Shown: positions 12,050 through 32,000, numbered from the stretch's first letter. The stretch: 32,000 nucleotides of DNA from an uncultured Alphaproteobacteria bacterium (GCA_934246625.1 CAKQHZ010000001.1:270001-302000), one strand, 5' to 3'. A program made the numbers and translations. The notes: generated by a model not told the origin, from the letters alone.

Positions 12050-12084
12050 AATAAAAGAAAAGCTCCATAATGGAGCTTTTTTTA
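12050..12084. terminator. Bidirectional intrinsic terminator shared by the convergent tpiA and ankyrin genes
   Basis: AAAGCTCCA-taa-TGGAGCTTT is flanked by a T-run on the + strand (TTTTTTA) and by TTCTTTTATTTT on the - strand. The ankyrin stop codon lies in the tail. Confidence 0.7.
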
Positions 12085-12570
12085 TCTTTGATTTGTATTT
12101 AGATTTATAACTTGTTTTACCTGATGTTCATAATTTTCCAAAATTGATACAATCTTAGCAGAACTTTCCTTTAACTCATCATCTGCAAATTTATTTGTTA
12201 TTTTGGCATAGGAAAGAGGAGTCATATCATAAGTATCCTTTGATAAAATATCAATTTTATTTTTTACAAGAAAATCAACCATTTCTATTTTTTGATTGAT
12301 AATTGCAATATACAATGCTGTGCGTTTATCAATATCAACTGAATTAACATTTAAACCAAGTTGCAATAAAAGTTTTGCAATTTCAGTATTACCAAAGTAA
12401 GCAGCATAATGAAGGTATGACCAATGCAAAGCATCTTGTTCCAAAACCACTGATTCTGATGCAAGCAATTTTTTCAAAGTTGCTACATCATTATATCTAA
12501 TACAATCCAAAATCATTGAAAATTTTGATTGTGAAATGTCGTTATCAACTTTTTCCATAGTATGCTCCAT
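12082..12570 (-). CDS. Ankyrin-repeat protein (about 3 ANK repeats)
   Basis: ANK consensus is visible in SYLHYAAYFGNTEIAKLLLQLGLNVNSVD, KRTALYIAIINQKIEMVDFLVKNKIDILSKD and DMTPLSYA. The true start may be the second ATG (12558), which has GGAG 6 nt upstream. No signal peptide. Confidence 0.85.
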   Translation of the reverse strand: MEHTMEKVDNDISQSKFSMILDCIRYNDVATLKKLLASESVVLEQDALHWSYLHYAAYFGNTEIAKLLLQLGLNVNSVDIDKRTALYIAIINQKIEMVDFLVKNKIDILSKDTYDMTPLSYAKITNKFADDELKESSAKIVSILENYEHQVKQVINLNTNQR

Positions 12571-13568: not shown

Positions 13569-14531
13569 ATGAAAAAATCAAAATTTAATTTAGTATCTGT
13601 GTTAAAGGCTTTTGGAATAACTCCTCAATTCCTTATAATCTCTTTATTTATCATTTTTATATTTGGTATTGGTTTGGGTTTGTTTTTTAAAAATAGCTAT
13701 TCCCCAAAAAAGAAAGTTGTCGTTGTTGAAACAGAAATAAAGGAGCCAACAGAGGCAACCGTTCCTAAATCTGAAAATGACAACCAAACACTTGATATAT
13801 TTGCAGAACTAAGCAATACTCCATTCGTGAAAAATGCAGTTATTATTGATAAGGAAATAAAAACTCCTGTGGTGGCGATTATCATTGATGATATGGGGAT
13901 TGATATGCTTAAATCTCGTCAAATTTTAGAGTTTAATTTACCATTCAATGTTTCATTTTTAACTTATGCTCCAAATATTCAATCACAAATTGACTTTGCC
14001 CGTAAATCAGGAAAGGAAATTATGCTTCACGTCCCTATGCAGGCTTTACATGACAACTATGATTATGGTGGGGATTATCTTTCAACTGATAAATCTCGAT
14101 TTGAAAATCTTGAAATTTTAAATACTCAACTTGATAAAGCAAAGGGATACATTGGCATAAATAATCATATGGGAAGCAAATTTACTGCGGATATGGCTCA
14201 AATGACTGCTGTAATGGAGGAATTAACTAAACGAGGATTAGCCTTTATCGACTCAAAAACAAATTCCGAATCAAAAGGAGATGAAATTGCAAGTTTCCTA
14301 AAACTCCCTTATGTTGCTCGTGATGTATTTTTAGACGACAGCAATAAGGAAGAAGATATTATAAAAAGCCTTATCAAACTTGAAACTATTGCAAAAAAAC
14401 GTGGCTATGCTGTGGCAATAGGACACCCAAGAAAAAATACTATCAAAGTTTTAAAGCAATGGTTTGATACTATTTCTCAACGTGGAATTGAAATAGTTCC
14501 TATTTCCTATATTATAAAAAATTATCGTTAA
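13569..14531 (+). CDS. Divergent polysaccharide deacetylase family protein (YibQ / PF04748-like), membrane-anchored
   Basis: An N-terminal TM segment (FLIISLFIIFIFGIGLGLFF) is followed by VVAIIIDDMG, HVPMQ, NNHMGSKFT and AIGHP motifs characteristic of the YibQ family. Confidence 0.8.
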   Translation: MKKSKFNLVSVLKAFGITPQFLIISLFIIFIFGIGLGLFFKNSYSPKKKVVVVETEIKEPTEATVPKSENDNQTLDIFAELSNTPFVKNAVIIDKEIKTPVVAIIIDDMGIDMLKSRQILEFNLPFNVSFLTYAPNIQSQIDFARKSGKEIMLHVPMQALHDNYDYGGDYLSTDKSRFENLEILNTQLDKAKGYIGINNHMGSKFTADMAQMTAVMEELTKRGLAFIDSKTNSESKGDEIASFLKLPYVARDVFLDDSNKEEDIIKSLIKLETIAKKRGYAVAIGHPRKNTIKVLKQWFDTISQRGIEIVPISYIIKNYR

Positions 14532-15209: not shown

Positions 15210-15248
15210 AAAATACCCCCTGTTATTGCTAAGGGGGTATAATTTTTA
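15208..15248. terminator. Bidirectional intrinsic terminator between the convergent quinone reductase gene and Cys-rich gene 1
   Basis: ATACCCCCT-gttattgcta-AGGGGGTAT has a T-run after it on the - strand (TTTTTT) and TAATTTTT after it on the + strand. Confidence 0.7.
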
Positions 15249-15890
15249 ATAACAATTAAAACTTATCGTTATTGAAGCTCCTTCTAAACATTTTTTATAC
15301 TTTTCCCTTCTTTCGGACATTATACTGGAACAACTTTGTTCATTACAATATGTGTTTATCGTGCAAGAAGTTGAAATAATATCCCTTATACTAAATTCAG
15401 ACAGACTAGCACTTTGCCCATGGTATTCAGTTGATTTTATATATCTCTTTTGTGAGTTTTCTGTAGAATCCCAGGTTATTTTATATGTTTTGTTGCTAGC
15501 ATCTAGTGTTGCAACCAATGTATATGATGAATCATCTTTTTCTTTATACACATATACTATTGTGCAACAGAGATTACCGGATTGAGAGAAACCGGAATCG
15601 CAAGCCCAGGAGCAAGAGTCGGAGGTTGCGTTAGAAGTGAAGTGGGAGTTTGCTGGTTTGCTTTGGCATGGGGAACAGAAAGAGGCTGAACTGCTTGAGT
15701 AAGTGCCTGTTGGACAGGCTTCACAGCTTGAGGCGGCTCCCTTTGAAAATGTGCCTGCACTACAACTTTTGCATTGACCACTTTCTGCATAAGTGCCGGC
15801 TGGGCATGGTGTGCATTGATAAAAATTTTGGGCGAAGGCTGGGCTTGACATTACTCCCATTATGCCCGCTATTAGTATTTCTTTTTTCAT
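15246..15890 (-). CDS. Secreted cysteine-rich protein with three tandem CxxCxxGT[YF] repeats (ephrin-receptor-like / GCC2_GCC3-type pattern)
   Basis: AAAGGAG SD. Signal peptide ...MSSPAFA/QN. Repeats CTPCPAGTYAESGQ, CKSCSAGTFSKGAASS and CEACPTGTYSSSSASF are followed by CSPC. I count 17 Cys in total. Terminator immediately downstream. Confidence 0.75.
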   Translation of the reverse strand: MKKEILIAGIMGVMSSPAFAQNFYQCTPCPAGTYAESGQCKSCSAGTFSKGAASSCEACPTGTYSSSSASFCSPCQSKPANSHFTSNATSDSCSWACDSGFSQSGNLCCTIVYVYKEKDDSSYTLVATLDASNKTYKITWDSTENSQKRYIKSTEYHGQSASLSEFSIRDIISTSCTINTYCNEQSCSSIMSERREKYKKCLEGASITISFNCY

Positions 15891-24261: not shown

Positions 24262-24292
24262 AAAGGGAGGTTTTGCCTCCCCTTTTTATTTT
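24262..24292. terminator. Bidirectional intrinsic terminator between the convergent msbA-like and malQ genes
   Basis: GGGAGG-ttttg-CCTCCC is followed by CTTTTTATTTT on the + strand and by TTTATCTTTTTA on the - strand. Confidence 0.65.
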
Positions 24293-26412
24293 CGTTCTTT
24301 TTTAACTTCCTTTATAAAGTCCTTAATAAAATCTAAATTTTTTAAATTATCTGTTGTAAATGGCAACTTAATTCGCCAATTTGGATATTCATCAACAGTG
24401 CTTGGAACATTTTGCATAAGGGTTTGCCCAACAATATCTTCTATACGAATCATAAATAAGGCACTTTTGCTTTTTGCACCGTATTTATTAAATGATAGTG
24501 CAAGGTTTTCAGGCACACAATCACCACTTAGGCAATATTGAAACAAATCCGCATTATCCACAAAACAATTTTCCCTTTTTAATGCCCTTATAACCGCAAT
24601 TCGTTCAGTATTCCTTGTTTCCAAACTGGTTTCATATTGTGATTTTTTAGGGTAAAGATGGCAAGAATTATTTGCCTTTATATCCTCGGCAATCCAAAAA
24701 CCACAGCTTGTTGCTTGGTCATGAGTTGATACCTGTGCCAATGAAAAGTATGGGTATTTTGTGGTGGAAAGAAAAGCTCCATCTTTGTCCTTTTGCCTAA
24801 ATAAAATTTTATTTGAAAGGATTTTATGTTGTGCCATAAATTCCCTAAAACCATCTGGAACATTACCTAAATCCTCACCAATAACAATACATTTATGCTT
24901 ATGGCTTTCAAGGGTTAATATTGCAACCAAATCTTTCATATTATAATAGATATAAGCGCCCTTACCGTTTTTATTTACCCAAAAAAGTCGCATAAGGCTG
25001 AAGGAATGGTCCAAGCGAATCGCACCTGCATATTGCATAGTTTGTGTAATAAGTGAAATAAATACTTGATAATTTTGTTGAAGTTCAAATGGCTTTAATG
25101 GAGTTAAACCCCATGTTTGTCCCTTTGGTCTTATTGTATCAGGAGGAGTTCCTATATCATAATCAAGTGCAAACATATTTTTGTTTTGCCAAACTTCTGC
25201 ACTATTGGAACTTGCACCTGTAGGAATATCAAGATAAAGTCCAACCTTCATTTTTAATTTTTCACAAAGAGCTTTTATTTTTTTAATTTCTATATCACAA
25301 AGCCAATGTGTATAAGCATAGAAATATATTTTATTTTGATATTTCTTTTTTAATTTTTCCAAATTATCAGGTGTTATATTTTTTAATTCTGTTTTCCATT
25401 TACCCCAAAACGAATCGTTTGTTTCAAGCAAACTTTCAAATAAACATAAATTTACAAGGTTCGTATCAGATGCAAATTTATAAAACTTTTTTGCACGTGA
25501 TGAATTTTTTAAAAGCTCGGTTTTATAAAAGTGATTAAACATCATTTTAAGGATTTTTGTTTTAATTTGAAATGTTTTAAAATAATCAACCTTGTCCGAA
25601 TTTTCTAAAATATTTACCTGTTTTTTATATGATAAAGACTTGATAAACTTGCTTACTTCTTCTGATTGTTTAAAATCATTTTGTTTTGGTAAATCAAGAT
25701 AAAGATAGTTCAAATATTCACGGGATAAAGCACGATAAGGAGATACATCTGATTTGCTTTTGTTATACATTGCACCCAGCGGATTTAAGCCAACAAAATC
25801 ACAGTCCTTGTCCGCAACATATTTTATCAAATTTTCAAGAGCGGTAAAGTTTCCAACACCCATATCATTTTTTGAACGAAGTGCATAAAGTTGAATCCCA
25901 AGCCCCAATAATTTTTTTTGCTTTGCTTCTATTTGTTTTGGGAAATAAGCATATTGTGGGGCATATATGATAAATGAATTTAATACCATCTTTCCAACAA
26001 AAACTTTCAAAGAATAATATCCAAAATCCTTTGGTAAAGGAAGTTCAAATTGAATATGGGTTAAATTTTTCTTATCAATACGTTTATTCTCCTTTGTTTG
26101 AAAATTTTTGATAACACCTGTTTTTATAACTTTGTCATTTTGTAAAATTTTATATACAATTTGTGAATCAAGCAATGTGGTATCAAGATATAAATCAATC
26201 AACTTTTTATCATTTTCAAAAAATGATATACTTGGCGAAATACCATTATACCAACAAAAATTCGGTATGGTTTTCATATCCATTTTTGAAAGATGAAAGG
26301 ATTTAATAAATAAATTCCTCATTTGATTATCGGTATTATGGGTAATTCCCATTTTATCAATGTAATAGTTTGAAAGTCCAAGTGCCTCTGATAATATTTT
26401 GATATTATTCAT
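24286..26412 (-). CDS. malQ: 4-alpha-glucanotransferase (amylomaltase, GH77), long MalQ-type with an N-terminal extension
   Basis: GH77 motifs YLDIPTGASSNSAEVW, AIRLDHSFSLMRLFW, VIGEDLGNVPDGF and VSTHDQ. At 708 aa it is comparable to long MalQ enzymes. Confidence 0.88.
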   Translation of the reverse strand: MNNIKILSEALGLSNYYIDKMGITHNTDNQMRNLFIKSFHLSKMDMKTIPNFCWYNGISPSISFFENDKKLIDLYLDTTLLDSQIVYKILQNDKVIKTGVIKNFQTKENKRIDKKNLTHIQFELPLPKDFGYYSLKVFVGKMVLNSFIIYAPQYAYFPKQIEAKQKKLLGLGIQLYALRSKNDMGVGNFTALENLIKYVADKDCDFVGLNPLGAMYNKSKSDVSPYRALSREYLNYLYLDLPKQNDFKQSEEVSKFIKSLSYKKQVNILENSDKVDYFKTFQIKTKILKMMFNHFYKTELLKNSSRAKKFYKFASDTNLVNLCLFESLLETNDSFWGKWKTELKNITPDNLEKLKKKYQNKIYFYAYTHWLCDIEIKKIKALCEKLKMKVGLYLDIPTGASSNSAEVWQNKNMFALDYDIGTPPDTIRPKGQTWGLTPLKPFELQQNYQVFISLITQTMQYAGAIRLDHSFSLMRLFWVNKNGKGAYIYYNMKDLVAILTLESHKHKCIVIGEDLGNVPDGFREFMAQHKILSNKILFRQKDKDGAFLSTTKYPYFSLAQVSTHDQATSCGFWIAEDIKANNSCHLYPKKSQYETSLETRNTERIAVIRALKRENCFVDNADLFQYCLSGDCVPENLALSFNKYGAKSKSALFMIRIEDIVGQTLMQNVPSTVDEYPNWRIKLPFTTDNLKNLDFIKDFIKEVKKERK

Positions 26413-26491: not shown

Positions 26492-27976
26492 ATGAAAAAA
26501 ACTAATGCACTTTTAAATTATATTTATGCTCAACGATGGTGTAATTTCAAAGAGGATATTATCAATGGAAATGTAAAATCTGTTGTATTAGAAAGTGCAC
26601 CATTTGATGATGATAAAAAATTTTTTATCCTTGGAAAGGCGGAAATAAAAAATAAATCACCAAAGTTTTTTATTATGCCTCTTGCAAAGGGAATAATGGC
26701 AAATGAAATGCCTCTTCGATATAAAAAATTTAAGGTATTTGATGCCCTTAAATCAAGCAATTATTGGTCCTCAATTATGAATGCGACTTGTCTTAATAAT
26801 TCGCTTTCTGTGTCAAAAGAATATAATCTTGTATATCAATCTTGGACCGATTTGGATTTTATTACAAATCACTTGAATGATACATCAAAACCTCTTAATG
26901 CAGAACAAAGTAATACAACTTTGATAATTGGAAATAGGACTTTAGCTTTTAAGCAACAACGCCTTATTGAATTTTCAAATTCTGTTAATCCAGAAGTTGA
27001 AATGAATTACAACCTTATGAAAAGTAAATGTTCTGTTATTCCAAAAACATACGGGCATTTATTTTTGATTTCACCAAAGGGGGAAAATGCCTTTGTTGGA
27101 ATTGTGCAAGAATTTATTCCAAACCATGGGGATTTGTGGGCAATACTCCTTAAACGAATTTATGAAATTTTAATTAAAGCCATAAAAAATAATAAGGATA
27201 AAATTGCATCTCGAGATATTACTCCACTTAAACATTTGATGAATGACCTTGGGGTAAGGACATCTGAAATGCTTAAATGTCTTTCTTCATTTAAAGGAAG
27301 TGATGATTTAAAGGTTGAAGCAATTACAACAAAGTATATCAAAAACTATACTGCTGAATTAAAAAATCAAGCCGAAGAGGCAAAAAACAAAATCTATCAA
27401 AATATAGAATATTTACCAGAGGTGATAAGGCAAAGAATCTCCCCTCTTCTTGAAAATTGGGATAAATATATTAACAAGTTTATTCAAGAAAACATATCCG
27501 AAATTTCAAAGCGAAAGCGAAAAGGAAAATTGATGCGGGTGCATGGAGATTTCCATCTTGGGCAAGTGATACTTTCTGAAAATAATGAACTTAAGTTTAT
27601 TGATTTTTCCGGTGAACCAAATCTTTCATTTGCAAAACGAAAGGAAAAGCACCCGTATATGTATGATATTGCAGGTATGTATCGCTCTATCAATGGGTAT
27701 TTGGAAGCATCAGTTGTAATTAAATATGCTATTGATGAATTTGGTGAACTTAATAAGGATAAATTGATACTGGGTTATAAAATTTTACATCCGGTAATTG
27801 AAAAGTTGACTGAAAGTTTTCTTAAACCTCAAAATATTGATAAGCAATGGTTAAACCTTGAAATACTAAGACGAAATCTTTATGAAATAAGTTATGAAAT
27901 TTCATACAGACCTAAAATGCTTTCGGTGCCAGTCTTTAATTTACTTAATCTTTTGAATGTGGATTATAAAATTTAA
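26492..27976 (+). CDS. mak: Maltokinase-like kinase (Mak/Pep2 family, APH-fold)
   Basis: RVHGDFHLGQVIL and IDFSGEPNLSFAKRKEKHPYMYDIAGMYRSINGY closely follow the maltokinase catalytic-loop and DFEGEP motifs. It is divergent from malQ. Confidence 0.75.
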   Translation: MKKTNALLNYIYAQRWCNFKEDIINGNVKSVVLESAPFDDDKKFFILGKAEIKNKSPKFFIMPLAKGIMANEMPLRYKKFKVFDALKSSNYWSSIMNATCLNNSLSVSKEYNLVYQSWTDLDFITNHLNDTSKPLNAEQSNTTLIIGNRTLAFKQQRLIEFSNSVNPEVEMNYNLMKSKCSVIPKTYGHLFLISPKGENAFVGIVQEFIPNHGDLWAILLKRIYEILIKAIKNNKDKIASRDITPLKHLMNDLGVRTSEMLKCLSSFKGSDDLKVEAITTKYIKNYTAELKNQAEEAKNKIYQNIEYLPEVIRQRISPLLENWDKYINKFIQENISEISKRKRKGKLMRVHGDFHLGQVILSENNELKFIDFSGEPNLSFAKRKEKHPYMYDIAGMYRSINGYLEASVVIKYAIDEFGELNKDKLILGYKILHPVIEKLTESFLKPQNIDKQWLNLEILRRNLYEISYEISYRPKMLSVPVFNLLNLLNVDYKI

Positions 27977-28261: not shown

Positions 28262-28597
28262 ATGGTTCAAAGAAAGCGTATGTCCTTACTAGATGATTTA
28301 GAAATGCAAAGATGCACTACAAATAGAATGCTTACAAAGTTTTTATTGATTCTATGTATCGTGTTAATTTTATACATAACCTTTAACATTATAAATCGTG
28401 CAAAGGAACGTCGTGAGGTAGATTTGCTTGTTTCTGAAATTCAAAATGAAATTTTTATAAAACAATGTAATCTTAATAAAATGTATTGCTGTAGCTATAA
28501 AGACTCTGTTGCTTGCGATAAATGGGTTGAAAATAATTGTTTGGAAAGTGATGGAGCATTAGAAATAAATTGCTCTAATATACGAATAAATAATTGA
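28262..28597 (+). CDS. Small single-pass membrane protein with a Cys-rich extracytoplasmic tail, hypothetical
   Basis: Strong AAGGAGG SD. A basic N-terminus is followed by the TM segment FLLILCIVLILYITFNII, then 7 Cys in the last 50 residues. No known motif. Confidence 0.5.
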   Translation: MVQRKRMSLLDDLEMQRCTTNRMLTKFLLILCIVLILYITFNIINRAKERREVDLLVSEIQNEIFIKQCNLNKMYCCSYKDSVACDKWVENNCLESDGALEINCSNIRINN

Positions 28598-28605
28598 CAA
28601 AAATA

Positions 28606-28633
28606 TTGACAAACCTATTTTATATACTATAAT
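28606..28633 (+). promoter_or_regulatory. Consensus sigma70 promoter upstream of the 28666 small gene
   Basis: TTGACA (28606-28611), a 16-nt spacer, then TATAAT (28628-28633). A second TTGACA 10 bp upstream (28595-28600) overlaps the preceding stop codon. Confidence 0.55.
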
Positions 28634-28665
28634 CCTTTATATTACAATTTAATATGAGGATTAAA

Positions 28666-28911
28666 ATGAAACAAATTACAGACAAAGATTTAGAAACTAT
28701 GATACATGAACAAAATGCCCTTAACGATATGTTTAAGGAAGAATTTGGTTCAGAACAAATTGCAATGCAAAATATTTATGATGAATTAAAATCTGATGCA
28801 AAACTTCCTAAATTTGAAAATCCATTTTCAAAAATTATGAATAAAATAAAAGAAGCTAAAACTCATAAGGAATTTTTAAAAAGCGATTTCCTTAACGATA
28901 AAATCAGATAA
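28666..28911 (+). CDS. Small hydrophilic hypothetical protein (81 aa; the track ORF starts at 28654)
   Basis: The ATG at 28666 has GAGGA 5 nt upstream, and the predicted transcription start is near 28640. The ATG at 28654 has no SD. The protein is predicted helical and K/E-rich. No known motif. Confidence 0.45.
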   Translation: MKQITDKDLETMIHEQNALNDMFKEEFGSEQIAMQNIYDELKSDAKLPKFENPFSKIMNKIKEAKTHKEFLKSDFLNDKIR

Positions 28912-28998
28912 ATAAAGTATTGCATATACTGTTATTTTATTATATAATGAAATTATCCTTTAATAAGGATAAATAATAACAAAATAACAAAAGACAAA

Positions 28999-29028
28999 AG
29001 GTATTACAATGTAATACCTCTTTTTTTA
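28999..29028. terminator. Bidirectional intrinsic terminator between the convergent small genes and murE
   Basis: AGGTATTAC-aat-GTAATACCT is followed by CTTTTTTTATT on the + strand and by TTTTGTCTTTTGTT on the - strand. The murE stop lies in the + strand T-tail. Confidence 0.65.
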
Positions 29029-31968
29029 TTCTTCTTCCTTTAATAAATCCAAAACAGTTTGTTGGTCGGTGTATGGAATATGATTATCCTTTATAACAAT
29101 ATAGTCCTCGTGTCCCTTACCAGCAATCAAAATAACATCTCCCTTTGATGCAAGCTCTATTGCTTTTTTGATTGCATCTTTTCGACCTGTTTTAATTTCA
29201 ATAGCCTTTGGACAATGTGCCATTACTTCGTTTCGAATTTTTTGTGCATCTTCAAAACGAGGAGAATCATCTGTTAAAATTGCAATATCTGCAAGTTGTT
29301 GTGCCGCTTCACCAAGTTCTTGTCGTCTTCGTGTTTCATACACATCACCACAAGTTGAAAATACACAAATAATTTTTTTATCGGTCATTGAACGAAGAGT
29401 TTTTAATGTATTGACAAGAGCATCACCCTTATATGCAAAATCAACATAGATAGAAGCTCCCTTTTTCGTATCACCCATATATTCAAGTCTTCCAACGGCA
29501 TTTCTTACTTCACCAAGTCGTGGTAAAACATTTTGCCATGATGGAGTTGTGGCAATAACCATACCCAATGCACAAAGGAGATTGTAAAGTTGGAATGAAC
29601 CCAAAATTTTTAAATCAAAATGATATTTATGTCCGAATAATTCGACTTCGACATCTTGACCTGTAAGAGAAATTTTTTGTGAAAGTATCTTTAATTCCTT
29701 ACCATTTTTTCCGTATGAGAAAACTTTGATGCCTCGCTTATCACAAATATCTTTTAAAAATTCGTATTCTGGAATATCTGCATTTAAAACGGCTGTGCCA
29801 TCAGATGATAAATTTTCACGGAAAAGTTTTGACTTTGAATAAAGATAGCTTTTTGCATCACCATAAAAATCAACGTGGTCGGTTCCAAGGTTTGTGAAAC
29901 CCGCACTGGCAATTTTTATATTTTCCATACGAAGTTGGTCAAGCCCATGTGAAGAAAGTTCAATAGCGGCATTATTAACACCTTTTTCCTTGAAATACTT
30001 CAAAAACTTATAAACTTCACCATTAACAGGAGTTGTATAGTCAGAACCACTATACTTTATAACTTGTTTTTTTGAATAAACATTTTCAGCAATAATGCCT
30101 ATTGTTCCAGAACTTATTGCAGGAAGTCCCAATAATGCCCAAAGTTGACGGGTAAAATCAACGACAGAAGATTTTCCACTGCTTCCTGTGATTGCAACTA
30201 TTGTATCAGGTTGAGTTTTATTGTAAAAATTATAAATAATATCGGCAAAAGTTTTACGTGTATTATCAACCTTTATAACGACTATATTTTTATCATTTAT
30301 CAATTTTTGGGTTGCATCGTTAAAATTATAATCTTTTTCAACAATAACTGCCTTTGCTCCATTTTTAATGGCACTTTCTGTGTAATCGGCACCATTTACA
30401 GTAAAACCATTTATACCAATAAAAATTGAACCTTCTATTATTGTGTTGCTGTCAGAAGAAACTCGATAAATTGGAGTTGATGGAATATCCTTTAAATTAA
30501 AACCTGATTTCAAAAGAAGTTCATCAAGTGGCACAGAATGAGGAGCCAATTTATTGCGGATAAATTCCTTGTCCTTTTCATACATAGTTCCACAAATAAT
30601 GATTGAATCCCAATGGCGAGATGTATCAATGACTTCGTCTATTGCCTTATATCTGTTTGGAATAACGGTTGCCTTTGGACAATACTTTACAATAGTATCA
30701 CGAATATGTTTTGGATCTTCGGTTCGTGGATTATCATCAACAATAATTACTGTATCAGCATATTCATTTAAAACCTTTCCCATTTCAATACGACGAATGT
30801 CCGGTCTGTCGCCACTGCAACCTGCAATACAAATAAGATTATGGTCGACATAAGGTCTGAACTCTGTTAAAAGTTTTTTAAGTCCATCACCATTGTGTCC
30901 AAAGTCAACATAAATTTTTGCACCATTTGGAGATGTGCCAACATATTCAATACGTCCCTTTTCATTTTTCAAATTTGAAAGGTGTGGCAAAACCTTTTCC
31001 CAATCATCAACACTTGTCATAAATAAACCTAAAGCACACATAAAATTATATACCTGAAATTCAGTTACAAGATTAAGTGTTAAATCGTATATTTTACCAA
31101 AGATAGAAAGTTTTACCTTTTGTGAATAATTTTCTATTTTATACTCTAAAAGTTGAATATCGGCACCTGCGTTTTTACCATAGGTAATTGTTTTGATTCC
31201 TCGAGATTTACAAACATCAATTATTTTAGATGCACGAGAATCATCAATATTTATTACAGCAGTTCCATCACTTTCCAATAATTCAGAAAAAAGACGAAGT
31301 TTAGCATTAAAATATTCGTCAATAGTTTTATGATAATCAAGATGGTCATTGGAAATATTTGTAAAACCAGCGGATTTAATTTTTATATAATCTACACGAT
31401 TTTGAATAATTCCATGTGATGAAGTTTCAAGTGCAACATTTGTAATGCCTTCGTTGTATAAATTTTGCAAATTTTTATGTAAATCTATGGCATCAGGTGT
31501 TGTCAAAGTTTTTTGACCTACGTTGTTTGAAGTTTGAACTCCTACTGTGCCAATAGAAGCTCCATTGATACCAACAAAATCCCACATTTGCCTTACGAAA
31601 TTGACAATAGAACTTTTTCCATTTGTGCCAGTAACTGCCAAAATAAAATCTGGTTTATTTGGATAAAAAATATTTGAAACTTTTGCCTCGGTTTCACGAA
31701 TATTTTCAACAAAAATAAATGGAATGTTTTGATATTTAGATGGGTCAATATTATCTTTATTATCATTGCCGATAATAATTGCAACTGCACCATTTGAAAT
31801 TGCATTATCAATAAAATCTGCACCATTAAAATTTATTCCCTTTATCGCAATAAAGATATTTCCAGTTTGAATTTTTGATGAATTATTTTGAAGACCTGTA
31901 ATTTCAATATCGTTATTAAAATTAACTGTATTTGATTTTATATTATTTAATATTTCAGATAGTTTCAT
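29026..31968 (-). CDS. murE: Tandem MurE-MurE fusion: two complete UDP-MurNAc-tripeptide synthetase (Mur ligase) modules in one 980-aa polypeptide
   Basis: Module 1 (aa 1 to about 478; nt about 30535-31968) has VTGTNGKSS, LTTPDA, ETSSHG, FTNISNDHLDYH and DDNPRTEDP. Module 2 (aa about 479-980; nt 29029 to about 30534) has ITGSSGKSS, YTTPVN, ELSSHG, FTNLGTDHVDFY, DDSPRFED and AGKGHEDY. The frame is continuous with no internal stop. Confidence 0.85.
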   Translation of the reverse strand: MKLSEILNNIKSNTVNFNNDIEITGLQNNSSKIQTGNIFIAIKGINFNGADFIDNAISNGAVAIIIGNDNKDNIDPSKYQNIPFIFVENIRETEAKVSNIFYPNKPDFILAVTGTNGKSSIVNFVRQMWDFVGINGASIGTVGVQTSNNVGQKTLTTPDAIDLHKNLQNLYNEGITNVALETSSHGIIQNRVDYIKIKSAGFTNISNDHLDYHKTIDEYFNAKLRLFSELLESDGTAVINIDDSRASKIIDVCKSRGIKTITYGKNAGADIQLLEYKIENYSQKVKLSIFGKIYDLTLNLVTEFQVYNFMCALGLFMTSVDDWEKVLPHLSNLKNEKGRIEYVGTSPNGAKIYVDFGHNGDGLKKLLTEFRPYVDHNLICIAGCSGDRPDIRRIEMGKVLNEYADTVIIVDDNPRTEDPKHIRDTIVKYCPKATVIPNRYKAIDEVIDTSRHWDSIIICGTMYEKDKEFIRNKLAPHSVPLDELLLKSGFNLKDIPSTPIYRVSSDSNTIIEGSIFIGINGFTVNGADYTESAIKNGAKAVIVEKDYNFNDATQKLINDKNIVVIKVDNTRKTFADIIYNFYNKTQPDTIVAITGSSGKSSVVDFTRQLWALLGLPAISSGTIGIIAENVYSKKQVIKYSGSDYTTPVNGEVYKFLKYFKEKGVNNAAIELSSHGLDQLRMENIKIASAGFTNLGTDHVDFYGDAKSYLYSKSKLFRENLSSDGTAVLNADIPEYEFLKDICDKRGIKVFSYGKNGKELKILSQKISLTGQDVEVELFGHKYHFDLKILGSFQLYNLLCALGMVIATTPSWQNVLPRLGEVRNAVGRLEYMGDTKKGASIYVDFAYKGDALVNTLKTLRSMTDKKIICVFSTCGDVYETRRRQELGEAAQQLADIAILTDDSPRFEDAQKIRNEVMAHCPKAIEIKTGRKDAIKKAIELASKGDVILIAGKGHEDYIVIKDNHIPYTDQQTVLDLLKEEE

Positions 31969-32000
31969 TTTTTATCCTTTTATTATAATTGTTATATTTT

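Follow-up and report, generated by a model that had tools for sequence, protein, structure and literature searches.

A conserved tandem MurE-MurE fusion with a divergent second module in uncultured gut-associated Alphaproteobacteria

Results and Discussion

The analysed window, 32,000 nucleotides of a genome of an uncultured Alphaproteobacteria bacterium (CAKQHZ010000001.1:270001-302000), contains a single gene that encodes two complete, non-identical MurE-type Mur ligase modules in tandem. Both modules retain the catalytic residues of the Mur family and are under strong purifying selection, and each departs from canonical MurE in its own way. Few bacterial reactions are as conserved as the Mur ligase steps, which are also antibiotic targets; the functions of the paralogues MurT/GatD and MurD2/MurL each exposed unexpected wall chemistry. 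The fusion suggests an extra or altered step in the building of the cell-wall peptide. The reading preferred here, judged to be about evenly poised, is that module 1 adds meso-diaminopimelate (meso-DAP) and that module 2 is a neofunctionalised ligase with a new substrate.

Architecture of the fusion

The reading frame has no internal stop, and each of the Mur_ligase N, M and C domains of Pfam (PF01225, PF08245 and PF02875) is found twice in the 980-residue product (Table 1), as expected from the two tandem modules that an earlier note, made from the sequence alone, had described. The modules share 40% identity over 453 residues (E = 8e-113), and the DNA of the two halves is similar in merely two stretches of about 100 nucleotides, at 67–69% identity. 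This confinement indicates an old duplication rather than an assembly-type repeat, as the earlier note had held. Nine MAGs, each assembled independently and drawn from various hosts and projects, contain intact ORFs of 977–984 residues, which excludes the missed frameshift or misassembly that had been a concern. With these nine assemblies, halves that are barely alignable as DNA, junction residues conserved across the family and no point in its favour found, the probability that the fusion is an artefact of assembly or annotation (a duplication collapsed during assembly, two sequences joined as a chimera, or a stop codon overlooked between two genes) is practically negligible.

Table 1. Features of the fusion gene and its flanks (window coordinates; residues numbered in the 980-residue protein)
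Feature	Residues	Nucleotides	Strand	Remarks
Hairpin terminator, bidirectional		28996..29022	.	Just after the stop codon
murE-murE fusion gene		29026..31968	-	ORF, ATG start, 980 codons and stop
Module 2	478-980	29029..30537	-	MurE-type ligase; TIGR01085, PDB MurE matches
Module 2 GKGHE (in AGKGHEDY)	950-954	29107..29121	-	Followed by intact terminal hairpin and helix
Module 2 DSPR	901-904	29257..29268	-	28/28 module 2 sequences
Module 2 CGDVYE	873-878	29335..29352	-	In place of canonical GGDRD; Arg lost
Module 2 DFAYKGD	843-849	29422..29442	-	In place of canonical DYAHTPD (His to Tyr)
Module 2 insertion region ENVYSKKQVIKYSGSD	628-643	30040..30087	-	Directly before TTP
Module 2 P-loop TGSSGKSS	594-601	30166..30189	-	Ser where canonical Asn
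Junction	465-480	30529..30576	-	Helix KDKEFIRNKL in place of MurE C-terminal hairpin and helix
Module 1	1-477	30538..31968	-	MurE-type ligase; TIGR01085, NF001124, PDB MurE matches, 88-domain column comparison
Module 1 GTMYE	460-464	30577..30591	-	Stands in for canonical GKGHE
Module 1 DNPR	412-415	30724..30735	-	meso-DAP specificity motif; 95-100% conserved in family
Module 1 P-loop TGTNGKSS	113-120	31609..31632	-	Invariant in 22 orthologues
Ribosome-binding site AAGGA		31975..31979	-	Last 32 nt of window compared with alr-murEE intergenic regions of relatives

Family assignment and fold

Both modules pass the cut-off of the MurE family TIGR01085 (366.3 bits for module 1 and 353.9 bits for module 2; cut-off 257.3) and fail that of the murF family TIGR01143 (92.4 and 105 bits; cut-off 288.6). 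A local MurE HMM likewise gives 496–536 bits, and a local MurF HMM at most 108 bits. Both halves are thus MurE-type, as had been proposed, and neither is a MurF. The top score of each is with the meso-DAP-type MurE equivalog NF001124 (463.1 and 428.2 bits, both below its cut-off of 476), and neither passes the L-lysine-adding MurE model NF010628 (238.8 and 214.1 bits; cut-off 536). Against the bifunctional MurE-MurF model NF008896 (cut-off 1023), for which true members (P0030, P0034, P0035 and P0078) score 842–905 bits, the two halves reach 380 and 341 bits and align to the MurE part only. The mpl profile gives 34 bits, and neither module is nearer to Mpl, MurT or PAP11 than to MurE. Both modules match solved MurE structures in the PDB by sequence, and each superposes on such structures with a TM score of 0.80–0.87. 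The AF2 model of the full protein has a pLDDT of 88 and a pTM of 0.74.

Catalytic residues and shared motifs

The catalytic set of the Mur family is taken here to be the P-loop Lys, Glu, His, Asn, Arg, Asp and the carbamylated Lys (after Bouhss et al. 1997). All seven residues, the carbamylated Lys included, are kept in both modules in 22 of 22 orthologues (K118, E181, H209, K223, N308, R339 and D355 in module 1; K599, E670, H698, K712, N796, R827 and D843 in module 2). Both modules also keep the substrate motifs TTP (residues 156–158 and 645–647), SSHG (residues 183–186 and 672–675) and Q.R, together with the equivalents of D413, R416, G464 and E468. The FTN segment reads FTNISNDHLDY in module 1 and FTNLGTDHVDF in module 2. 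The P-loops and all of these motifs except Q.R, as well as DNPR, DSPR and GKGHE/CGTMYEKDKE, lie where the earlier note had placed them, and the divergence is asymmetric as it had stated, with DNPR but no GKGHE in module 1, and DSPR together with GKGHE in module 2.

Module 1 and the junction

In a comparison with 88 canonical MurE domains, every conserved position of the N-terminal and central domains is canonical in module 1, and DNPR is kept. The Asn and Arg of this motif bind the distal carboxylate of meso-DAP, and N414 and R416 are the proposed discriminators between DAP and Lys (PMC3829189, PMC3681970). With canonical UDP-MurNAc-dipeptide and ATP sites and DNPR, module 1 would be a meso-DAP-adding MurE.

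The C-terminal end of module 1 is different. The Lys, Gly and His of GKGHE, which are 100% conserved in canonical MurE, are lost; the local sequence is CGTMYEKDKE, in which C459, G460 and T461 do not vary within the family. The C-terminal hairpin is also missing. Since these three residues and the hairpin are present in all other MurE examined, module 1, rather than module 2, could be the impaired or altered one. The junction contains no linker and leads directly into module 2, whose N-terminus is homologous (SVPLDELL, compared with MKLSEIL). Across the family, residues D466, F469, I470 and K473 are unchanged, and the AF2 model has helices at residues 463–474 and 481–487. The C-terminal lid of module 1 (GKGHE, hairpin and helix) may have been rebuilt as a helix in rigid contact with module 2.

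Module 2

In module 2, the catalytic invariants are intact and the substrate-site motifs are altered, with changes at N117, Y213/H214, H359, R389 and N414 (mature E. coli numbering) and an insertion. Its DSPR motif occurs in none of about 250 other MurE domains. Y846 and K847 of DFAYKGD are invariant in the family, and the His that corresponds to Y846 is 100% conserved in canonical MurE; a second His to Tyr change is found in DYH. The insertion adds eight residues relative to other MurE, is conserved in the family and is present in no other MurE aligned; a pLDDT below 50 in the AF2 model indicates a flexible loop. Several of the residues changed in module 2 are invariant even among non-DAP MurE variants. 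R389 was considered as a DAP-specific contact, which was not upheld: the Arg is retained even in non-DNPR MurE variants, so that its loss in module 2 is notable yet provides no argument about DAP.

The chemistry of module 2 would be kept (P-loop Lys, the Mg ligands Glu and His, carbamyl-Lys, Arg and Asp), while its substrate contacts would be changed by DSPR, the loss of the Arg of GGDRD, the two His to Tyr replacements and the loop by TTP. Candidate substrates are another amino acid, or another carboxylate on the same nucleotide precursor. Module 2 may still accept meso-DAP, because the Asp, Arg and Glu of the DAP pocket are present and Ser could stand for Asn.

Distribution, origin and selection

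The same architecture (953–984 residues, 54–82% identity) is found in 14 species-level GTDB MAGs and in about 28 protein clusters. The carriers are uncultured AT-rich gut alphaproteobacteria, labelled 'Rickettsiales' or 'Alphaproteobacteria' MAGs at NCBI, from rumen, rodent and termite guts. The earlier note knew of no described MurE-MurE fusion, and none was found in the literature; of its proviso that the architecture might be both common and characterised in related genomes, the first half holds and the second does not.

In the phylogenetic tree, all module 1 sequences form one clade and all module 2 sequences another (100% bootstrap each), the two are sisters at 82.5%, and the branching order within one mirrors that within the other. 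This sister relationship makes a tandem duplication specific to the lineage likely, although the grouping of the modules could be aided by a shared AT-driven amino-acid bias. The murE gene would have been duplicated in tandem and fused in frame in an ancestor of this AT-rich gut-associated clade. The probable ancestral state in the group is a MurE-MurF chimera.

Purifying selection is equally strong on the two modules, with dN/dS of 0.04–0.12 in both (0.06/0.04 and 0.07/0.09 for the unsaturated pairs), and within-module diversity is equal (0.53 and 0.55). In sister lineages, MurE is fused to the remnant of a MurF, whose P-loop is destroyed and whose C-terminal domain is missing. Real decay is therefore detectable in this group, and it is absent from both MurE modules.

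Gene neighbourhood and MurF supply

No murF is found downstream of the fusion gene within the window; as the earlier note had described, the terminator is followed by two convergent ORFs, which have no Pfam match. Upstream, comparison with relatives places a conserved promoter, TTGAT(A/T)-N17-TATAAAAT, and a divergent alr gene just past the end of the window. In loci of about 20 kb, all 15 distinct relatives have alr divergently adjacent to the fusion, an arrangement seen in no locus outside the family. The neighbouring racemase matches alanine racemases best (126 bits with 3KW3 of Bartonella and 147–172 bits with TIGR00492), compared with 44 bits for lysine racemase. The idea that it acts on lysine, or on a broad range of substrates, and supplies module 2 with D-Lys in a Thermotoga-like manner was consequently rejected as the default.

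The dcw clusters of relatives run directly from ftsI to mraY and contain neither murE nor murF; the fusion lies outside the dcw cluster, beside alr, and not in the canonical place of MurE between ftsI and murF/mraY. A MurF-like ligase with a transmembrane (TM) anchor is encoded on the same 164-kb contig as one fusion gene, and its gene adjoins ddl in L096 (Ddl of 402 residues). This protein is derived from MurF, with intact central and C-terminal domains and without the UDP-binding N-domain and its KGS loop, and is conserved in the clade and far outside it. MurF activity is probably supplied by this ligase, which would most likely be the enzyme that adds D-Ala-D-Ala.

Possible functions of the two modules

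As to the substrate of module 2, a new Mur ligase activity, by which the UDP-MurNAc peptide would receive an extra or non-canonical residue, is put forward tentatively. This residue could, for example, be a D-amino acid that comes from the adjacent racemase and is attached to DAP or to the D-Glu alpha-carboxyl; a second example would be an unusual diamino acid in position 3. Different specificities of the two modules had been one of two readings in the earlier note. They are a candidate explanation, favoured by the restriction of DSPR to module 2 and by independent murE pairs elsewhere, which combine a DNPR with a non-DNPR copy.

Alternatively, both modules could add meso-DAP, as a covalent isozyme 'dimer' that may be kinetically subfunctionalised or mutually compensating and leaves the peptidoglycan chemistry unchanged. 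Both score best on the meso-DAP-type model and share the conserved pocket residues and substrate motifs, and their defects look complementary (GKGHE and the tail in module 1; N414, H359 and R389 in module 2). However, redundant active sites rarely persist to 54% identity with dN/dS of about 0.05–0.1 in both, module 2 alters residues that are invariant in non-DAP MurE variants and has gained a conserved loop at the substrate cleft, and DSPR is absent from ordinary MurE. This arrangement is considered unlikely. Even so, it would be the first documented homo-type Mur chimera.

That one module is no longer a ligase but a nucleotide-binding scaffold or regulatory domain, for example for docking of the membrane MurF-like enzyme, MraY or MurG, is rather improbable. 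Each module has lost residues otherwise invariant in MurE, relatives tolerate a non-catalytic second module (the MurF remnant), and a structural MurE-like subunit exists in PAP11 of plastid RNA polymerase, which is among the PDB matches. Nevertheless, every catalytic invariant is present in both modules of all 22 orthologues under equal constraint, whereas the remnant in the sister lineages did lose its catalytic residues. The degenerate scaffold or pseudo-dimer, the other reading of the earlier note, is not supported by these observations.

It is quite improbable that module 2 acts downstream on the product of module 1, adding either D-Ala-D-Ala, as a MurF analogue that descends from MurE, or one D-amino acid provided by the neighbouring racemase. 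Its position parallels that of MurF in the MurE-MurF chimeras common in Alphaproteobacteria and is occupied by the dead MurF remnant in sister lineages; relatives lack a canonical murF between ftsI and mraY, alr is invariably adjacent, and the TM-anchored protein is without its UDP-binding domain and KGS loop. Against this, that MurF-derived ligase, adjoining ddl, is conserved in the clade and beyond, module 2 still has an N-domain of the MurE type and, in its central domain, the residues by which D-Glu is positioned, and a normal murF follows P0249, a MurE-MurE fusion of independent origin. The simple replacement of a lost MurF by module 2 had early appeal, as murE and murF are absent from dcw, alr is adjacent and no ddl was seen in the first loci. 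It is weakened by the conserved membrane-anchored ligase, on a fusion-gene contig and beside Ddl in L096.

In the preferred reading, both modules would be working ATP-dependent Mur ligases. If module 2 has indeed a new activity, this clade would have rewired the late cytoplasmic part of the synthesis of peptidoglycan precursors, since MurF would at the same time have become membrane-anchored without its UDP-binding domain. In a lineage whose MurF has been remodelled, a second MurE active site is stably retained under selection and linked covalently to the first. The fusion can be cloned and is a concrete candidate for a new ligation reaction, or for a new residue of the stem peptide, in gut symbionts that are uncultured.

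Comparison with known systems

Each module resembles canonical MurE in the three-domain Mur ligase fold, the catalytic invariants and a score above the family threshold. The fusion differs in having two modules per chain and in its location outside dcw, beside alr; module 1 differs by the loss of the GKGHE residues and hairpin, and module 2 by DSPR, the Arg and His losses and the extra loop.

The Thermotoga maritima MurE (4BUB), an enzyme that adds L- and D-lysine, is the second-best PDB match of module 1. It resembles module 2 in that the second position of DNPR is changed and the Arg is kept (DDPR in the alignment). It is, however, a single module, module 2 has Ser instead of Asp and many further changes, and the racemase beside the fusion resembles Alr, not a lysine racemase.

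Mur ligase folds have also been recruited for lipid II amidation, tripeptide recycling or structural roles in MurT (MurT/GatD), Mpl and plant PAP11, none of which is a tandem MurE. The 'two murE' genes of Streptomycetaceae, examined as a precedent, are murE and murT.

P0249 (DNPR, then DNAE) and the unfused tandem murE pairs of gut Bacilli and Oscillospiraceae MAGs (a DNPR copy with a DDLH, DDPH or DDPG copy) likewise place a DNPR-type and a non-DNPR-type MurE side by side. They are independent duplications, most of them unfused, and their variant copies are changed mainly at the fourth DNPR position (to Glu, His or Gly), with all other MurE invariants kept. No characterisation of P0249-type or tandem murE pairs was found.

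The closest parallel in architecture is the MurE-MurF chimera (NF008896/PRK11929), a linker-less head-to-tail pair of Mur ligases common in Proteobacteria, with a structure from Bordetella pertussis (8F5D; Shirakawa et al. 2023, PMC10214165). Over the full length, no other structure matches the fusion as well (835 aligned columns), with a poor overall superposition (rmsd 17 Å). A survey of Mur chimeras, from which unidentified species were excluded, lists no MurE-MurE type (PMC10214165). In the present fusion, the second module is derived from MurE instead of MurF. MurE-MurF, MurE with a dead MurF remnant and MurE-MurE, in this order, provide a natural series for the evolution of multi-enzyme Mur complexes.

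Two MurE modules in one protein

The fusion protein contains two consecutive sets of the Mur-ligase N-terminal, central and C-terminal domains (Pfam). When the protein was cut between residues 477 and 478 and the halves were scored separately, both matched MurE best: modules 1 and 2 reached 366 and 354 bits against TIGR01085 (MurE; cut-off 257), and 92 and 105 bits against TIGR01143 (MurF), far under the cut-off of 288.6. The two MurE-type modules described in an earlier note, made from the sequence without database searches, are thus confirmed, and every motif and coordinate that it reported checks out. The halves are also clearly diverged, as it had stated, with 40% identity across 453 residues and DNA that is hardly alignable. 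Module 2 starts precisely where, by homology, a MurE N-terminus would lie (SVPLDELL aligned to MKLSEIL); the modules are therefore fused without a linker. The terminator and convergent orphan genes that had been noted downstream correspond to a hairpin followed by two small ORFs without family matches. A perfect sigma-70 consensus (TTGACA-16-TATAAT, 28606–28633) lies upstream of the second small ORF.

An AF2 model of the fusion protein, of high overall confidence (pLDDT 88.2, pTM 0.74), places each module on solved MurE structures with TM-scores of 0.80–0.87. The best full-length structural match is the MurE-MurF chimera 8F5D, but the superposition is poor (rmsd 17 Å). Feature coordinates are summarized in the table.

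Features of the window and of related loci (L-numbers, loci of relatives; P-numbers, proteins or protein clusters)
Feature	Location	Strand	Remarks
Lytic transglycosylase	746–2068	minus	SLT_2 and PG-binding domain
Ankyrin-repeat protein	12082–12570	minus
Cys-rich protein	15246–15890	minus	weak ephrin-receptor-like match
Polysaccharide deacetylase	13569–14531	plus	divergent
4-alpha-glucanotransferase MalQ	24286–26412	minus	adjoins 494-aa ORF
494-aa ORF	26492–27976	plus	motif HGDFHLGQVIL; weak APH kinase-fold match
Two small ORFs (111 and 85 aa)	28262–28911	plus	convergent on fusion gene
Bidirectional hairpin terminator	28996–29022		3' of fusion stop codon
murE-murE fusion ORF	29026–31968	minus	980 codons
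Divergent alr	L001–L019, L086–L090		expected ~120 bp past window position 32000
Membrane-anchored MurF-like ligase (P0386)	L091:1419–3008	minus
Membrane-anchored MurF-like ligase (P0386)	L096:8001–9593	plus
D-Ala-D-Ala ligase (402 aa)	L096:9618–10826	minus	convergent to MurF-like gene, 25 bp gap
MurE with dead MurF remnant (P0104)	L094:10001–12385		also P0243, P0247, P0248, P0029, P0031, P0032
MurE-MurE fusion P0249	L093:2369–5308		halves 52% identical; contig 50% GC
Unfused tandem murE pair	L021:4472–7186		gut Bacilli MAG; DNPR and DDLH
Unfused tandem murE pair	L023:9983–12685		gut Bacilli MAG; DNPR and DDLH
Unfused tandem murE pair	L022:9989–12748		MAG titled Muribaculaceae, pair resembles Bacilli pairs; DNPR and DDPH
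Unfused tandem murE pair	L070:9857–13017		Oscillospiraceae MAG; DNPR and DDPG

Conservation and origin of the fusion

A search of 5.8 billion proteins returned about 28 clusters with the same two-MurE architecture (953–984 aa, 54–100% identity), after which the matches are ordinary MurE-MurF chimeras at about 31% identity. The cluster representative P0001 is listed at 100% identity, yet three substitutions (V150I, P733S and R822K) separate it from the protein of the window. Scanning one genome per GTDB species located the fusion in 14 MAGs, which are labeled Alphaproteobacteria or Rickettsiales at NCBI and, judging from record titles and isolate codes, originate in the guts of ruminants, rodents and termites; their fusion proteins are annotated as plain MurE (e.g. 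MBQ8660569.1 and MDR1009099.1). The ORF is uninterrupted, at 977–984 aa, in nine of these assemblies, which answers the concern about misassembly or a missed frameshift. The fusion is real and conserved.

Both modules from ten family members were placed in a neighbor-joining (distance-based) tree together with 60 single MurEs, E. coli MurE and the MurE portions of chimeric proteins. Each module forms its own clade with 100% bootstrap support, and their sister relationship receives 82.5%, a grouping that AT-driven composition common to the modules could inflate. The branching order within one clade mirrors that within the other. This combination of sister clades and mirrored branching points to a single tandem duplication and fusion that preceded diversification of the clade.

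Departures from ordinary MurE

The modules were compared with 88 canonical MurE domains and further MurE paralogues. In module 1, the N-terminal and central domains are canonical throughout, DNPR is retained and the changes are confined to the C-terminal domain: DYAHTPD becomes DFGHNGD, GKGHE becomes GTMYE with its Gly and Glu retained, and, in place of the terminal hairpin and helix, a conserved helix with invariant D466, F469, I470 and K473 leads into module 2. Module 2 retains GKGHE and the C-terminal tail, so that the asymmetric divergence remarked on previously holds. Its changes are DNPR to DSPR, GGDRD to CGDxYE, DYAHTPD to DFAYKGD, DYH to DFY and Asn to Ser in the P-loop, together with a conserved eight-residue insertion immediately N-terminal of the TTP motif, the sole low-confidence stretch of the AF2 model. 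Every one of the 28 module 2 sequences has DSPR, a motif absent from the roughly 250 other MurE domains examined. In published structures, the Asn and Arg of DNPR contact the distal carboxylate of meso-DAP, and they are the proposed DAP/Lys discriminators (PMC3829189, PMC3681970). From a figure legend, we infer that the pre-TTP loop of S. aureus MurE overlies the product site.

Read most economically, this motif conservation would make module 1 the meso-DAP ligase and module 2 a neofunctionalised paralogue of MurE that ligates another amino acid or uses another carboxylate as acceptor, with the modules fixed in a head-to-tail arrangement. The pocket Asp, Arg and Glu are retained in module 2, which suggests that its ligand may still carry a distal amino group and a carboxylate. 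Simple redundancy of the two modules is hard to reconcile with active sites that are both intact across the clade, and it leaves unexplained the clade-specific, fully conserved changes of module 2 at sites kept even by non-DAP MurE variants.

Gene neighborhood

The window stops 32 nt upstream of the fusion start codon; the upstream context was therefore taken from related loci. An Alr-family racemase gene lies divergently and directly upstream of the fusion in all 15 distinct relatives, among which every other neighbor of the fusion gene varies. No alr was found near non-family loci, including the closest single-murE outgroup. The alr-fusion spacer is 120–130 bp in the mammalian-gut subclade, with a conserved promoter TTGAT(A/T)-N17-TATAAAAT, and only 35–57 bp in termite-gut members; the final bases of the window align with the downstream end of the mammalian-gut spacer. 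A lysine or broad-spectrum racemase was considered, but the protein is most similar to alphaproteobacterial alanine racemase. The invariant pairing with alr leaves room for direct D-amino acid use.

The dcw clusters of the clade have the order mraZ-rsmH-ftsL-ftsI-mraY-murD-ftsW-murG-murC-murB and lack murE, murF, ddl and ftsQAZ. A few kb away is a MurF-derived ligase of 529–530 aa, with about four predicted transmembrane helices in place of the N-terminal UDP-binding domain, YEND as its 'KGS' loop and a TIGR01143 score of 219 bits, under the cut-off. Its family comprises more than 120 clusters from Alphaproteobacteria/'Rickettsiales' MAGs, and one member shares a 164-kb contig with a fusion gene. 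A general query of the peptidoglycan literature, not aimed at this ligase, returned no description of it. At L096 (30% GC), the D-Ala-D-Ala ligase gene is outside the dcw cluster; ddl, unlike alr, sits with the MurF-like gene. A takeover of the role of MurF by module 2 was considered. This is unnecessary given the conserved MurF-like ligase beside ddl, and module 2 retains both the MurE-type N-terminal domain and the residues of the central domain by which D-Glu is positioned.

The window, at about 30% GC and with an ankyrin-repeat protein, fits a host-associated alphaproteobacterium, a lifestyle also suggested by the eukaryote-like domains of the ankyrin and Cys-rich proteins. The transglycosylase and deacetylase genes are further peptidoglycan-related genes, and they make it clear that this organism builds a wall and remodels it. 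The 494-aa ORF beside malQ matches no family above threshold and may encode an enzyme resembling maltokinase, with a role in glycogen or maltose metabolism.

Catalytic residues and selection

Asn, Arg and Asp are among the residues invariant across Mur ligases. These three, the P-loop Lys, the Mg ligands Glu and His and the carbamyl-Lys are present in both modules of all 22 aligned orthologues. The dN/dS ratios of modules 1 and 2 are 0.061 and 0.041 between loci L006 and L018, and 0.071 and 0.091 between L008 and L007; within-module diversity is 0.53 and 0.55. The suggestion that one module is a degenerate scaffold and no ligase is contradicted by these intact residues and by the strong constraint on both modules.

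In the nearest non-family relatives (746–794 aa), a remnant of MurF is fused to a normal MurE. The N-terminal domain and part of the central domain of the remnant survive; its P-loop, remaining catalytic motifs and entire C-terminal domain are gone. One of these relatives, P0104, occupies the canonical murE-murF slot of its dcw cluster, which also lacks murD and ddl. Second-module decay is thus visible in this group, whereas at the sequence level neither MurE module of the fusion shows any.

Comparison with other murE doublings and Mur chimeras

An exhaustive search of representatives identified an independent MurE-MurE fusion, P0249 (979 aa), known from a single contig. Its halves are sisters (100% bootstrap) and carry DNPR and DNAE respectively, and the gene occupies the normal murE slot, followed by normal murF, mraY, murD, ftsW and murG. 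A PBP of this organism carries a PASTA domain. Together with the unfused tandem pairs, P0249 indicates that murE has been doubled recurrently, each time giving a DAP-type copy and an altered one, which supports a two-specificity logic. Of the options in the earlier note, different specificities of the modules would be favored by such DNPR/variant pairs and by the departures of module 2.

No MurE-MurE fusion was found in a full-text literature search, in line with the earlier note, whose author knew of none; searches for a second or duplicated murE turned up only murT and plant homologues. A systematic survey of Mur chimeras, from which unidentified species were excluded, reports MurE-MurF, MurC-Ddl, MurC-MurB, MurG-MurC, MurD-FtsW and MraY-MurG. 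Mur ligase chimeras and MurE paralogy are the known background of the fusion family, in which the changes go further than in other murE pairs and involve both copies.
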